Below the pieces are notes generated by a model. The model was not told where the DNA came from, made no database searches, and saw nothing but the letters and a program-made list of their open reading frames with translations. The translations under genes were made by a program, and so were the position numbers. A stretch of 53,152 nucleotides of DNA from a virus (lineage: Duplodnaviria > Caudoviricetes): the IMG/VR virus record IMGVR_UViG_3300032271_000411, positions 1 to 53,152 of that record. The stretch is one strand, 5' to 3'. Positions 25,753 through 34,428 of the stretch are shown here, one piece after another (the stretch's first letter is position 1; the number at the start of each line of letters is the position of its first letter).

Positions 25753-25761
25753 GAATGTGCT

Positions 25762-25946
25762 GAATACCACATGATACCACATGACACTCTTTTCACTAAA
25801 TAATTCTTTATTTCCATGTGGTATTTTGGATGTGGTATCCCTAAAGGGAAATACACGATACTACATGGGTCTGAAGCCCCCATGTAGTATTGTAAATCGA
25901 AGTCTGAATACTACATGAAAAAAGATGAATACCAGAATACTACATA
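25762..25946. repeat. Iteron cluster, putative replication origin
   Basis: Eight copies of ATAC(C/T)ACAT in both orientations directly after the primase gene. Confidence 0.75.
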
Positions 25947-25973
25947 GTTTTGCTTTACAAACGAAACGTATAC

Positions 25974-25997
25974 AAAAAACCCCCATTTCTGGGGGTT
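25974..25997 (-). terminator. Intrinsic terminator
   Basis: Minus strand: AACCCCCAG-aaa-TGGGGG followed by T6. Confidence 0.75.
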
Positions 25998-26026
25998 AGC
26001 TTAGATTTAATTTAGGGTTGATTTAT

Positions 26027-26200
26027 TTACTTACGGGCCTCAATCACAATCGTTGGCAACAGACTCTTGGCGTATGCCACGGCCGCTGACTTACTGTGAA
26101 AGGTTTCGCTTTCATCGTATTGATGATTTTCCTCATTGTAGGTAGACACATTCCAATATTTATTATATTTATCAAACCACACCTCAATTTTCTTGATCAT
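26027..26200 (-). CDS. Small hypothetical protein (57 aa)
   Basis: Translated by hand, MIKKIEVWFDKYNKYWNV...; AAGGAG RBS. Confidence 0.65.
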   Translation of the reverse strand: MIKKIEVWFDKYNKYWNVSTYNEENHQYDESETFHSKSAAVAYAKSLLPTIVIEARK

Positions 26201-26214
26201 TTGATCAACTCCTT

Positions 26215-26403
26215 TTAATAATCAGATTTCAAAACAAGTTTGCAAATTTCAGCTTCAGCAAGCAAGTCATCATGTTTTTGAAGTTGAACAGCAGCCTGTA
26301 CAGGCTCATCAAAAATGTGTTTCCGCAAAACGTACTCATCGTAGTGTTTCTTGGCTTGAACTTTGCAATTTACTAAGCGGGTAAATAATTGAGCTTTTGT
26401 CAT
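26215..26403 (-). CDS. Hypothetical protein
   Basis: AAGGA RBS. Confidence 0.65.
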   Translation of the reverse strand: MTKAQLFTRLVNCKVQAKKHYDEYVLRKHIFDEPVQAAVQLQKHDDLLAEAEICKLVLKSDY

Positions 26404-26429
26404 GTCATTTCCTTTGGTTCGTTATGGGA

Positions 26430-26991: not shown

Positions 26992-27327
26992 ATGGAAATT
27001 GAAAAACAACCTAAGAAAACCAAGGGCGGTGTCCGTGAAGGCGGCGGTCGTCCTAAGGGCGTGCCTAATAAGGCCACAACGCTCGCCAGAGAGGCCTTCG
27101 CGGCCTTCGTGGATGGGAATGCCCACCGCATGCAGGAGTGGCTTGAGCAGGTCGCTGTCGATCCTAAGCATGGTCCGAAGGTTGCCATTGAATTAGTGCT
27201 GCAGGTCAGCGAGTACCACATCCCTAAGTTGGCTCGCACTGAACACGTTGGCGACGGGGGCGGCCCTGTTGAGATGCGCGTGTCTCTAATTGAGAAGATT
27301 GCAGCCCGACGGCTCAAAGATGGCTGA
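26992..27327 (+). CDS. terS: Terminase small subunit (putative)
   Basis: GG.R.G.GRPKG.PNK.T N-terminus, H.G.GGGPV C-terminus, directly upstream of terL. Confidence 0.7.
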   Translation: MEIEKQPKKTKGGVREGGGRPKGVPNKATTLAREAFAAFVDGNAHRMQEWLEQVAVDPKHGPKVAIELVLQVSEYHIPKLARTEHVGDGGGPVEMRVSLIEKIAARRLKDG

Positions 27328-28714
27328 AGAGCTGGTCGAGCTCAGCATTGAAGAGCTCGTCATGCTCGACTGGCGTGAGTCTTGGTTTGATACCGCACGC
27401 CCCAAACAGATCATGCCCGACGGCGATTGGTGGACGACCTGGTTGATCTTGGCCGGCCGCGGTTGGGGTAAGACAAAGACCGGTGCCCAGGCGCTCGGTT
27501 GGTACGCGGCCACAAACCCCAACACCCGCTGCGGCATCATCGCCCCCACGACCAACGACGTCCGCGCCGTTTGCCTCGAGGGCGAGTCTGGCTTGATGGC
27601 GGTGCTTCCGCCTTCAATCATATCCGGATACAACAAATCATTGCTTGAGGTCACGCTCAAGAACGGCTCTATCATCCGCGGGTTCTCGGCCGAAGAGCCG
27701 TCGCGTCTACGTGGTCCACAGCATCACATCGTTTGGTGTGACGAGGCGGCCGCCTGGCAGTACCCCGACGAGGCGTGGTCGATGATGAAGTTTGGCTTGC
27801 GGCTTGGCCAGAGCCCGAAGGTAATCGTGACCACGACCCCCAAGCCCATCGACTTGGTTCGCCAGTTGGTGGACGAGGCCGAAGACGAGGACAGCTCAAC
27901 GATCATGACCACGGGCTCGACCTTCGAGAACGCCGATAACCTCGCCAAGTCATTCATCGATGAGCTCGCGCAGTTTGACGGCACCACGCTCGGCCGCCAA
28001 GAGCTGTACGCCGAGCTGATCTCTGAGCTCGAGGGCGGTATCGTCAGCGAGAGCTGGTTCAAGCTCTGGCCGGCCGCCAAGCCCCTGCCTCAGTTCGAGT
28101 ACGTCGTACAGTCGTACGACTGCGCGACCTCGGACAAGACCTCCAACGACCCGACCGCCTGCGTGGTGCTCGGGATCTTTCGCCCGTCGCCCGACAAGGC
28201 CATGTCCGCGATGGTGATCGACGCCTGGTCGGAGCACATGCTCTACCCTGACCTGCGCCCTAAGGTCATCGAAGAGGCCACCTCTATATATGGTGACGAG
28301 AACGAGTTCGGGAACGGCAAGAAAGTTGACTTGATCCTAATCGAGGACAAGTCCGCGGGCATCTCGCTCATCCAAGACCTGCAACGCGCCAACCTACCCG
28401 TGCGATCCTACAACCCAGGGCGTGCCGACAAGACCATGCGCCTGAACTTAGTCGCCCCGCTCATCATGCGCGGGCGCGTCTACCTGCCCGAGTCTGAGGA
28501 TCGACCAGGCAAGCCCCGCAAGTGGCTCAACCCCTTTGTCACCCAGGTCTGCTCCTTCCCCAACGCCAAGCACGACGACTACTGCGACGCGCTTAGCCAA
28601 GCCCTGCGCGTGCTGCGCGACATGAACTTCATTGAAATTGACCCGGTTGTGCATTATGATGACGAGTATGACGAGGATCGACGGATCCGGCGTGAGAATC
28701 CCTATGCGATGTGA
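27320..28714 (+). CDS. terL: Terminase large subunit
   Basis: AGRGWGKT, LRGPQ, WCDE, TTTP, QSYDCA, IEDKSAG, FPNAKHDD.CDA. Confidence 0.95.
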   Translation: MAEELVELSIEELVMLDWRESWFDTARPKQIMPDGDWWTTWLILAGRGWGKTKTGAQALGWYAATNPNTRCGIIAPTTNDVRAVCLEGESGLMAVLPPSIISGYNKSLLEVTLKNGSIIRGFSAEEPSRLRGPQHHIVWCDEAAAWQYPDEAWSMMKFGLRLGQSPKVIVTTTPKPIDLVRQLVDEAEDEDSSTIMTTGSTFENADNLAKSFIDELAQFDGTTLGRQELYAELISELEGGIVSESWFKLWPAAKPLPQFEYVVQSYDCATSDKTSNDPTACVVLGIFRPSPDKAMSAMVIDAWSEHMLYPDLRPKVIEEATSIYGDENEFGNGKKVDLILIEDKSAGISLIQDLQRANLPVRSYNPGRADKTMRLNLVAPLIMRGRVYLPESEDRPGKPRKWLNPFVTQVCSFPNAKHDDYCDALSQALRVLRDMNFIEIDPVVHYDDEYDEDRRIRRENPYAM

Positions 28715-33056: not shown

Positions 33057-33338
33057 ATGTCTGACGCAATTTCGCAGCACAAACGTATGGCAATGGGCGA
33101 GTCCGTGCCCTTGGCAGGCGGCAAATCAGTGATCCAAAAGTATGCCAAGGGCGGCGCAGTGATGGCCGAGAGCAAGGCAGCTAACTTACCGGCCAAGGGT
33201 GGCGCATTGCAACCCGTCAAGGCGACTGGCGAGAAGATCGCAACCTTCAAAAAGGGTGGCGTTGTGCCTAAGAACGGCATGGGCTTGAAGATAATCATCG
33301 GTGTTCCTGCGCGTAAAGCCGCCGGCCGTGGTCGTTAA
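33057..33338 (+). CDS. Small basic protein with four GG motifs
   Basis: LAGGK, YAKGGAV, PAKGGAL, FKKGGVV; AAGGAG RBS. Confidence 0.7.
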   Translation: MSDAISQHKRMAMGESVPLAGGKSVIQKYAKGGAVMAESKAANLPAKGGALQPVKATGEKIATFKKGGVVPKNGMGLKIIIGVPARKAAGRGR

Positions 33339-33519
33339 CCCAGTCAGCGAGCTAATCGGCAAGATAAAGGAGCGGCGCTTAGAGCTAGCGCTCTCCCTTG
33401 CTGACGGCTACGCGATCAACATTGAGTCTTACCACCGGATGGTTGGCACGTATCAAGGGCTTGGTGAAGCCCTGGACATACTTGACAGTATCTTGAATGA
33501 TGAGGACGAGGATTTGTAA
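33328..33519 (+). CDS. Hypothetical head-module protein
   Basis: L.DG.A...ESY..MVG..QGL..A; start uncertain (GTG). Confidence 0.7.
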   Translation: MVVNPVSELIGKIKERRLELALSLADGYAINIESYHRMVGTYQGLGEALDILDSILNDEDEDL

Positions 33520-33962
33520 ACGCCTTTAGCAAGCGGGGGTGTCTACTGGTAAGGGTCGTTACCTCAAACGCCTAGCTTTAGGGCTGACGCTTCGGAATAG
33601 ACGAGGGTCAACACGCATAGGGGTTGCTGGCTGACGAGCAGCATCAGACTGAGTCCAAAGGGCTGTGACAAGGCCAGCCACGGTTTGATGTACAAAAGGC
33701 AGTCCCTAGCCGTGTTGGTATGTGAAAGCAGATGCTGTTGGATTGCTAAAAAACCTTAACCGATATTCTAATGTCGGTGGCTACAGCACCCGCCATCTAA
33801 GCGCCTGCTGATCACAGGGGCAGTGCAGCGAGTAATTTACCAACACGGGATTGTCCATCGTAAATGACAATGTAGCGGCTTGCGGGCGAAATCTGAACAG
33901 AACAATGAGAGCTGTGTATCTCAGGCAAGGAACGACAGTGACACCTCGGAAAGACGAGGATA
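33520..33962 (+). ncRNA. Putative multi-module structured RNA (family not identified)
   Basis: No ORF in the track; many stems with G-U pairs, a possible pseudoknot, a GAA/AGUA motif, two related CG-GAA(U)AGA-CGAGG hairpins. Confidence 0.6.
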
Positions 33963-34012
33963 ACCGCGCCGAATGGCGCTTTTAACCAAGTGCCGAATGG
34001 CGCTTTAAGGAG
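33961..34012 (+). promoter_or_regulatory. Tandem duplicated hairpins before the groES RBS
   Basis: GCGCC-gaat-GGCGC and AGTGCC-gaat-GGCGCT, then AAGGAG. Confidence 0.6.
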
Positions 34013-34017
34013 TAGGT

Positions 34018-34428
34018 ATGAAGGACTTTGAAACCCTCGATGAGGCGTTCCCGCAGTGCGTACATGGCATCACACCACTAGGTGCCCGAGTGTTGTTACA
34101 ACTCAAAAGCGTCAAAAAAGCCAGTAAAGGCGGCATCATCCTAGTAGAAGAAACACGCGAAACTGAGCGTGCGCAGTCAATGATTGGCAAGGTCTTAGCG
34201 CTTGGTCCAATCGCATTCAAAAACCGTGACACTTTATCTGAATGGGGCGAAGGCATCTGGTGCCAGGTCGGCGACTACGTGCGCGTACCCCGTTGGTCAG
34301 GCGATCGGTTCACAGTGCCCAACCCAAACGACGCAGAAGACCAAGTTTCACTGCAAATCCTGAACGATTTTGAGTTATGGGCGAAGGTTGACCCTGACCA
34401 AGTCTTAACAATGAGGCAATTTGTATGA
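34018..34428 (+). CDS. groES: Co-chaperonin GroES-like protein
   Basis: PLG.RVL.......SKGGIIL......G.V.A.GP...VGD.V...ILND. Confidence 0.85.
   Translation: MKDFETLDEAFPQCVHGITPLGARVLLQLKSVKKASKGGIILVEETRETERAQSMIGKVLALGPIAFKNRDTLSEWGEGIWCQVGDYVRVPRWSGDRFTVPNPNDAEDQVSLQILNDFELWAKVDPDQVLTMRQFV

Follow-up and report, generated by a model that had tools for sequence, protein, structure and literature searches.

Portable non-coding modules with covarying helices in a gene-free gap of a phage late operon

We analysed the whole record of an uncultured virus, IMGVR_UViG_3300032271_000411 (53,152 bp, estimated completeness 91%; hereafter the window), and in particular the gene-free gap that separates a 72-aa gene from a GroES-like co-chaperonin gene in its late operon. 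This one gap yields three conserved non-coding modules, namely a 5' module with a hairpin called H (M0-H), M1 and M2. M0-H and M2 each occur in more than 100 uncultured phage contigs, and none of the three is present in Rfam 15, in the cultured-phage records tried or in the literature found. Probably the gap is no single dedicated RNA machine but a mosaic of non-coding modules that are structured, portable and on the sense strand. We have high confidence in the structural and evolutionary side of this reading: the modules have definite boundaries and are portable, an insertion-deletion lies at H, the helices covary with a bias to one strand, and Rfam has no model for them. The functional part is tentative. 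An earlier note, made from the letters of this DNA, had described the region as ORF-poor (poor in open reading frames), sense to the late operon and made of several modules, which is what we found, and had proposed a phage noncoding RNA cluster, switch or ribozyme. At least three modules with compensatory helices (the 5' module with H, M1 and M2) agree with the cluster, whereas the switch and the ribozyme did not hold up.

A 354-nt cassette between two copies of hairpin H

Related loci were collected by a portal-based search (80 of 276 relatives' loci kept, 58-97% portal identity), and the gene order around the gap is the same in nearly all 80. When the window gap was compared with these loci by blastn, only 33520-33606 and 33939-34017 gave matches, and in the relatives both end matches overlap on one single hairpin H, indicating that the window has 354 extra bases between H copies (the cassette H'-M1-M2-M3, Table 1). 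The two related hairpins pointed out in the earlier note are indeed direct repeats, 353-354 nt apart (families D2 and D6); that they bound a 354-nt insertion-deletion had gone unremarked there. A search for further H copies throughout this phage genome returned only 33939-59 at three mismatches or fewer.

Shorter forms of the gap fall into distinct sizes. In L005, L006, L007, L010, L013, L019, L021, L022 and L027 it measures 63-66 nt and contains two tandem hairpins and a ribosome-binding site, nothing else; these hairpins are retained in every close relative, the 63-nt form included, with changes that preserve pairing (AUGCC/GGCAU in L021). The gap is 148-150 nt long in L008, L012, L016, L063 and L015, with L014 of the same type, and about 280 nt in L002 and L004, where a small ORF of about 72 aa (MIKIKEVAIKTHDGKIH...) stands in place of the RNA modules, so that the site takes both coding and non-coding inserts. 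Contigs from public sequencing runs, which tell which forms exist and not whether they are transcribed, differ in the same way: one in X18 joins 33584 to 33939, skipping exactly the 354 nt; in one from X20 (the 63-nt form) only four other letters separate 33518 from 33962; and in a deep DNA contig in X2, a run that belongs to the study of the probable source sample, 71 other letters replace 33624-33840. The RNA-library runs X18, X19 and X20 hold small shares, with flanks or shorter forms only, and the parts without cover in these three are uninformative.

Pieces of the cassette were found at other genome positions in 9 of 30 relatives' whole records (E ≤ 0.1). M1 (33609-33725) matches at 92% in G003 and 81% in G010/G011, at other genome sites (by locus, 92% in L083 and 81% in L084/85); M2 (33708-33845) matches at 90% in G001, with shorter versions in G004/G005. 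The 90% M2 copy in L082/L341 lies directly upstream of a DNA-polymerase-like gene, and the commonest module site in relatives is between an Enc34-type ssDNA-binding-protein gene and such a polymerase-like gene, in sense orientation. The upstream gene there (187 aa) belongs to PF10991, Enc34 ssDNA-binding protein (E = 6.8e-42), and the gene directly after the modules opens like a DNA-polymerase exonuclease domain, as read from its translation (Pfam gave no hit for a 388-aa fragment). In other contigs the array follows a cro-like helix-turn-helix (HTH) gene or a small membrane-protein gene. The usual home of the modules is the replication/early region of related phages, a point missing from the earlier note. 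The window's only module copy is the one in the late operon; its replication genes (primase-polymerase, helicase and a Cas4-type nuclease, an exonuclease) form a different set from those of relatives with early-region copies, and tblastn found no homologue of the Enc34-type ssDNA-binding protein in the window. The tail of the cassette, M3, has homologues in L108 only, of 340 loci (96% over 33841-33945), again between a P1-type hairpin (P1 being the closing stem of M2) and an H copy. L108 carries two consecutive H-bounded units, whose M3-H end is 96% identical to the window. The modules behave as portable cassettes delimited by H.

We propose that the cassette was gained here, or lost in the relatives, by recombination between H copies. 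Such a process would recall the PeSL cassettes of T4-type phages, in which, according to two reports (PMC2839356, PMC4122927), repeated promoter-stem-loop units flank variable segments and mark the boundaries of insertion, deletion and replacement between close relatives. The two systems differ in payload, which here is structured non-coding RNA and not small ORFs, in phage group, and in the place of the stem-loop, H lying inside a promoter spacer and not after the promoter; moreover, the window H copies have no -10 box. The locus is an example of mosaicism in which non-coding RNA cassettes are shuffled between genome regions at a repeated hairpin, and it adds to a picture of phage mosaicism built mainly on protein-coding morons. 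At this position we would regard the cassette as an accessory insertion in the late operon, not essential, and not as a dedicated switch.

Compensatory changes in M1 and M2

Covariation among homologues was looked for and found in P1 and in the second stem P2 of M2, in the M1 stem, in hp2 (a hairpin of the 5' module) and in H. M1, M2, hp2 and H are maintained as helices through compensatory changes. Every string and complementarity quoted in the earlier note is present where it had been placed; the helices built from them fared differently.

M2 family members share one plan: behind a closing stem that covaries come the loop-E-like GAAA/GAGUA loop, two G-C pairs, a GGA/CA loop, then a second stem and, at the end, a tip that varies. 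In a first set of 10 distinct clade copies we observed the closing stem, GAAAGC opposite GCAGCGAGUA, and the second stem, with 7 of 28 pairs changed on both sides. A covariance model (CM) made from these ten copies gave 89 matches at E ≤ 1 in 100 of the listed loci; CM R1 scored 90.4 bits in the window, its sole match there, the window being one of the 10 model sequences. A wider scan for the two invariant strings, set 40-70 nt apart, returned at least 120 viral loci, with RRAU after GAAAGC in 104 of 120 distinct copies. GAAA opposite AGTA, which the earlier note had recognized as the loop E signature, is invariant in every family member seen, an invariance that is partly by construction since the scan pattern contained the GAAAGC and GAGUA strings. 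Because the scan fixed both strings, the independent evidence for helices lies in the adjoining bases.

These bases were analysed in 103 copies aligned by the anchors alone. P1 positions 1-4 are paired in 102, 101, 100 and 97 of them (shuffle maxima 64-78), with four to six pair types, and in the true register 468 of 515 cells are paired (0.91) versus 0.51-0.60 in slid registers. A MAFFT alignment of 53 copies gave 87.7% of cells paired over 14 named pairs, with 99 cells changed on both sides where 34.5 were expected; its covariation score of 0.395 was reached in 0 of 500 shuffles, which scored 0.136, and slid registers gave 0.045-0.116. G·U exceeds A·C in P1 (25 versus 5) and in P2 (235 versus 19) among the 103 copies, indicating that the folded strand is the + strand of the window, as the earlier note had favoured from G-U pairs. 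The CCGTGTTGGTA/TACCAACACGG helix of that note (arms 33710-20/33838-48, 11 nt, 100% complementary) proved to be part of a longer element, the extended closing stem of M2; genome-wide, CCGTGTTGGTA was found at its two arms plus one chance-level site only. In the window P1 is unusually long (14 positions, one mismatch) and directly flanks GAAAGC ... UGCAGCGAGUA, and P2 sets AGAUGCUGUU against GGGGCAGUG, in keeping with the RRAUGCUG/CAGUG pattern and the tandem U·G/G·U of the family. By these comparisons M2 is a member of a large, undescribed phage RNA family. Its likeness to the sarcin-ricin/loop E (bulged-G) motif is one of sequence signature only, in that GAAA (33724-27) faces GAGUA (33830-34) beside two G-C pairs; the M2 module differs in lying between a variable closing stem and a second stem of a phage message hairpin, and not in rRNA.

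The M1 alignment, of 16 distinct copies, was anchored solely by the invariant flanks (ACGCAU left, AGYCGUGUUG right). The main stem, the core of the TAGGGGTTGC/GCAGTCCCTA helix of the earlier note, has eight pairs that are standard in 128 of 128 cells, with two or three pair types at six of the eight positions and a U·G at position 6 that never varies. The longer arms in which it lies (33609-27/33699-717, 19 nt) are 79% complementary. RNAalifold gave a nested fold for the long type of M1 (4 distinct sequences), with 38 pairs, 9 of them changed on both sides. The inner helix, predicted earlier as GCATCAGACT/GGTTTGATGT, covaries, being GCAUCAGAC/GUUUGAUGU in the nested fold and GCAUUGAUC/GAUCAAUGC in L084; the same holds for a local hairpin (33661-65/33675-79) that is GGCUG/CAGCC in the window and GGGUA/UACCC in L084. 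Since this hairpin occupies the CAGCC of the TGGCTG/CAGCCA pairing proposed in the earlier note, the pseudoknot is unsupported. The outermost CAACACG/CGUGUUG pairing, proposed as a helix as well, is invariant in the long type and shows no covariation, and the left arm has become CAAGACG without a matching change in L115, L121, L179 and L208, so that we do not count it as a helix. A CUGACGAG string in M1 was considered as a hammerhead and rejected, as on reading it lacks the remaining core.

These results bear on the idea of a conformational switch with mutually exclusive helices and a pseudoknot, or of a self-cleaving ribozyme, which we now regard as quite improbable. It has its attractions: CGUGUUG (33711-17) can pair with CAACACG at 33609-15 or at 33841-47, tandem copies occur, and the M2 family resembles an aptamer in that its closing stem and unchanging internal loops lead to a tip that varies, frequently with a ribosome-binding site a few bases downstream. 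However, the covarying local hairpin displaces one pseudoknot arm, and the uncompensated C-to-G change in the CAACACG 5' arm recurs in L096/97. We prefer P1 over pairing with the M1 5' arm mainly because P1 outlives loss of the M2 body; in L083 and L084, which lack that body, the closing stem remains, capped by a 4-nt loop, and a G·U in it has become A-U. The genes downstream are unrelated (104 copies), unlike those behind a metabolite sensor, and no conserved terminator or sequestering helix that could form a riboswitch expression platform was found in the M2 family. Nor does any ribozyme or riboswitch model of Rfam 15 match the window even at E ≤ 10, the hammerhead, twister, pistol, hatchet, HDV-like and hairpin models included.

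The absence of a named family, suspected in the earlier note, was confirmed in the window and in related loci. At the gathering cut-off Rfam 15 (4227 models) gave 0 matches in the window, at E ≤ 10 the segment 33300-34200 gave two chance-level matches only (E = 2.7 and 5.7), and no model matched at the module positions in 38 related loci. The real Rfam matches in relatives, Betaproteobacteria-1 RNA (L107) and int-alpA (L176), both lie away from the modules. Betaproteobacteria-1 RNA (RF02932) is likewise a conserved structured RNA of unknown role, but no window module matches it or any other of the 4227 models. No tRNA or tmRNA was found in the window, and no match in cultured phage records by blastn of 33400-34100 and of one majority-class M2 copy. 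A search of the published literature, paper supplements aside, found nothing on this motif, and the string GCAGCGAGUA only in unrelated contexts. The STAXI motif near ssb genes was considered and set aside, being, according to its report (PMC2864571), a different pseudoknot repeat with its own Rfam model, which gave no match.

The 5' module and hairpin H in promoter spacers

The invariant U-rich 13-mer GCCUUUAGCAAGC that opens M0, together with the hp2 loop, is present at no fewer than 119 viral loci, and in 68 distinct copies, among the loci listed, it precedes hp2 and H. The stems of the first hairpin, hp1, differ among copies (UGAAACA/UGUUUCA, GGUCGG/CCGACC) while the loop RUAAGGGUC is constant, a comparison made by eye with no formal count. 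For hp2, 10-12 of 14 distinct stems are paired at each of five positions, with several pair types; shuffle means at positions 2-5 are 5.8-6.7. H is paired in 50 of 50 cells over 10 distinct stems, and its loop is fixed as GAAAGA or a 7-nt variant (68 copies).

H also has a position that the earlier note did not remark on: in most relatives it is a promoter spacer. In 55 of the 68 copies it exactly fills the 17-nt spacer from TTGACA/TTGGCA to a CAGAAT/CATAAT/TAGAAT-type hexamer, that is, a sigma-70-type promoter. In 11 others, those with M1 next, the start of M1 replaces the -10 hexamer. Both window copies are of this promoter-less kind; the hexamer 17 nt past GUGACA of the window H is TAACCG, with no -10 box.

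The spacer position is one ground for an alternative in which these elements act mainly on DNA, H as a promoter or recombination site and the cassette as an insertion, selfish or neutral, with no part for its RNA to play here. The direct repeats that bound the cassette, natural variants that differ by whole modules, and the match with the promoter-stem-loop cassettes reported for T4-type phages (PMC2839356, PMC4122927) all agree with it. We nevertheless judge this alternative unlikely. The stems change yet stay paired around fixed loops, unlike the usual evolution of protein operators; the strong excess of G·U over A·C, together with the tandem U·G/G·U that never varies at the foot of P2, is in keeping with RNA of one strand and not with duplex DNA or cruciforms; and the H copies of the window lack the -10 hexamer.

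The opening of the 5' module has some likeness to a lambda-type nut site: an invariant U-rich 13-mer comes first, a hairpin of 5 bp whose loop is rich in purines stands further on, and in most copies a cro-like gene lies directly upstream. The module differs in that two other hairpins separate the 13-mer from H, over a distance of about 55 nt, and in that the H loop has 6-7 nt. The 13-mer is presumably boxA-like, and the comparison of the 13-mer and H with boxA and boxB is likewise our own assumption.

The dominant M0-H class, located behind a cro-like gene (L094, L233 and L240 are examples), has conserved sequence over about 100-150 nt past the H-spacer promoter; this stretch, TGAATTGTTGTCGTG...AAGCCGTTTTAGTCTGTAGCC..., resembles a further small RNA unit. 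L107 (relative G010) carries at 2200-2316 a full-length RF02932 RNA (95.6 bits), about 700 nt downstream of an M0-H-M1 array; it is preceded by an apparent small RNA unit, with a TTGACA-16-TAAAAT promoter at about 2041-2070 and a U-tailed terminator at about 2100-2196.

Table 1. Modules, hairpins and neighbouring genes of the gap (window coordinates)
Feature	Position	Strand	Details
Terminase gene	27290-28714	+	Late block
Portal gene, 847 aa	30511-33054	+	PHROGs portal match
93-aa gene	33057-33338	+	No family match; conserved across relatives
72-aa gene upstream of gap	33301-33519	+	No PHROGs/family match; downstream of portal gene
Gap between 72-aa gene and GroES-like gene	33520-34017		498 nt; no convincing ORF
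5' module, with H'	33522-33606	+	Widespread
13-mer opening M0	33522-33534	+	GCCUUUAGCAAGC; U-rich, invariant; window, L008-type relatives, viral loci
hp1	33536-33565	+	Stem 33536-40/33561-65 (GGGGU/ACCUC); conserved loop GGUAAGGGUC (33548-57)
hp2	33570-33584	+	Stem GCCU/GGGC; conserved loop AGCUUUA
Extra cassette H'-M1-M2-M3	33585-33938	+	354 nt; missing from closest relatives
H', diverged left H copy	33585-33606	+	UGAC, CUUCG-GAAUAGA-CGAGG; left cassette boundary
M1, nested branched hairpin	33609-33718	+	Conserved CAACACGCAU 33609-18; stem 33619-26/33700-07; inner helix 33641-51/33681-91; hairpin 33661-65/33675-79; conserved AGCCGUGUUGG 33708-18
M2	33706-33848	+	Closing stem P1 33710-23/33835-48; GAAAGC 33724-29; P2 33733-39/33819-25; UGCAGCGAGUA 33824-34; apical domain 33740-33818
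M3, cassette tail	33849-33938	+	5' end like shortened M1 (GGAUUG); no structural evidence
H, right copy	33939-33959	+	UGACA, CCUCG-GAAAGA-CGAGG; identical to sole copy of L008-type relatives
Two tandem 5-bp hairpins	33966-34012	+	GCGCC-GAAU-GGCGC + UUUU and GUGCC-GAAU-GGCGC + UUU, then ribosome-binding site AAGGAG
GroES-like co-chaperonin gene	34018-34428	+	Pfam Cpn10 E = 1.3e-7; PHROGs co-chaperonin GroES E = 5.2e-9

Genomic setting of the M2 family and possible roles

M2 copies occupy recurrent positions. At least one long ORF ends within 60 nt upstream in 68 of the 98 copies with enough upstream sequence. Among these ORFs, 15 end in (I/V/L/A)P(F/L), a ..PF ending that we take to be the tail of classical SSB proteins; 12 end in ..PPWAKK or similar, and the two of these that were tested are Pfam DUF669; and 8 have acidic, W-containing tails similar to that of the Enc34-type gene in close relatives. 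Six copies (L161, L166, L179, L194, L198 and L227) begin 6-10 nt past a TATAAT-type hexamer, with a terminator-like hairpin or a TTGACA box upstream of it. As a rule the next start codon is about 20-30 nt past GAGUA, and the genes downstream are of many kinds (104 copies); the trinucleotide ACC stands right after P1 in 47 of 101 copies (nearby triplet rate 1.3%), and some family members are tandem. M2 thus recurs immediately after genes from no fewer than two unrelated Pfam families, those of Enc34-type ssDNA-binding proteins and of DUF669, after ORFs with a ..PF tail, and at the very start of sigma-70-type transcripts, placements that point to a general way in which these phages handle their early and replication messages.

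The M2 motif is rare in bacterial genomes: its exact pattern was present in five contigs of metagenome-assembled genomes (MAGs) titled Burkholderiaceae, Polaromonas (two), Limnohabitans and Terrimicrobiaceae, and the M2 model matched four of these five genomes; among 151 genomes of the family of the Limnohabitans MAG it matched only the centre genome itself and none beyond the seed. Window sequence is present in runs from lake and freshwater metagenomes, which suggests, taken with the MAG titles and the Betaproteobacteria-1 RNA in L107, that the hosts are freshwater Burkholderiales.

Taking the gap as a mosaic of structured modules, the cassette would be read through within the late message, the modules could act in cis on the fate of that message (stability, processing or read-through), and the invariant internal loop may be presented to a protein or to RNA polymerase. 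A more specific proposal is that the array is a processive antitermination leader like lambda nut or HK022 put, in which RNA polymerase, modified by the 5' module (the boxA-like 13-mer and its hairpins) and/or by M1-M2, would pass the two U-tailed hairpins at 33966-34006 as well as later terminators and so transcribe the capsid genes. According to the report on put (PMC9378689), the two stem-loops of put RNA form a V, and the RNA binds RNA polymerase and needs no protein factor to suppress terminators; putL comes immediately behind the PL promoter, and putR is situated past cro at a distance of about 270 nt from the start site. The modules described here are likewise cis-acting candidates after an early promoter or cro, and two stem-loops joined by conserved single strands are comparable to M1 plus M2. 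The placements also match, with M2 copies 6-10 nt past TATAAT-type hexamers in six loci, M0-H-M1-M2 after a cro-like gene in L094, L096, L097 and L105, and M0-H directly before two U-run hairpins in the window and in L008-type relatives. Against this, both hairpins are present in relatives whose 63-nt gap has none of the modules, and a terminator scan of the gap did not call the hairpins at 33966-34012; a consensus promoter and terminator scan likewise found none in the gap and one weak, chance-level promoter-like site inside the upstream gene. In that report put is about 70 nt long and binds the beta' zinc-binding domain, whereas M1 plus M2 span 200-240 nt in another architecture, M2 being one long irregular hairpin of 75-145 nt. 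Most M2-family copies lie between two genes with no terminator nearby, and what speaks for antitermination is positional, the boxA likeness being our assumption. We therefore give antitermination a low probability.

Equally speculative is the idea that M2 represents a new functional RNA class of freshwater Burkholderiales phages that acts directly on a host machine, with M0-H and M1 as companion parts of the same portable control system; we hold this to be improbable. Such an RNA may be a protein-independent modifier of RNA polymerase or, because the closing stem runs into ACC in 47 of 101 copies, a mimic of the tRNA acceptor end. The mimic may recruit RNase P or another tRNA enzyme and so cut or mark messages after ssDNA-binding-protein genes.

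Several observations weigh against our preferred reading of the gap as portable, structured RNA modules. The core, 33600-33945, folds no better than shuffles on the + strand (z = +0.07, 49 of 100 shuffles folding as well; z = -1.59 on the - strand), and for the whole gap z is -1.85 (+) and -2.04 (-), with 4 of 100 shuffles folding as well on each strand. We rejected folding energy as evidence for structure, and the structural case rests wholly on comparison with other phages. The earlier note had named folding no better than shuffled controls as a refuting result, and by that measure taken alone its proposal would fall. M2 of the window is out of its usual setting, having no start codon about 20-30 nt on and no ACC; M1 lies before it, M3, H and the two hairpins after it, the tail is GAUU, and the next start is 170 nt away. 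Its apical 79 nt are common to L082/L341 only, so that the tip and M3 have one other variant each, and a scan of metagenomes for the long M2 variant gave a single contig, of the L082 type. RNA-library contigs that reach the gap are shorter forms, possibly DNA, with strand and ends not shown. The nearest relatives lack the cassette, which may consequently be a neutral passenger here, and the place of H in a promoter spacer in 55 of 68 copies means that part of its conservation may act on DNA.

A further point of this kind is a 29-aa GTG-initiated ORF (33722-33811, +) that is uninterrupted in the window and in L082/L341, the two long M2 variants, with four silent and four replacing codon differences by reading. 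The cassette might accordingly encode one or more small proteins, from this frame or from a 44-aa ORF at 33851-33985. We find this highly improbable: the GTG start has no ribosome-binding site, L086-type copies retain only 15 codons of the frame, the majority class has no start triplet for it, and + strand stop-to-stop frames within the cassette reach at most 52 codons. Small ORFs, which the earlier note had named as a competing explanation of the region, are unlikely to account for it, the 29-aa frame not being kept in short M2 variants; the ORFs of the gap on either strand are of 27-44 aa only.

Downstream of the GroES-like gene the late block continues on the + strand with a scaffold-like gene and then virion proteins. 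The 93-aa and 72-aa genes upstream of the gap overlap by 38 nt in different frames and are both conserved across relatives. Other gaps of the same operon carry about 290-470 extra bases in some relatives, as judged from tblastn coordinates: between the portal and the 93-aa gene in L004, L014, L015, L019 and L054, and between the GroES-like gene and the scaffold gene in L010. The description of the gap as the longest non-coding stretch of the genome is correct for ORFs of at least 50 aa (33520-34004) and fails at a 70-aa limit, where 25753-26429 is longer. This second ORF-poor stretch (no ORF of 70 aa or more) has a low GC content, about 0.42-0.46, and lies between the primase-polymerase and packaging genes. 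Small peptides that are rich in Cys and begin with a signal-like segment (MKYLIALWL...CTYN.YCS.GQCVYCTTCCYGGNCNTTCN is one) recur beside M2-family copies, downstream of M2 in L125, L134 and L135 and upstream of it in L123, L142, L157, L177 and L199.

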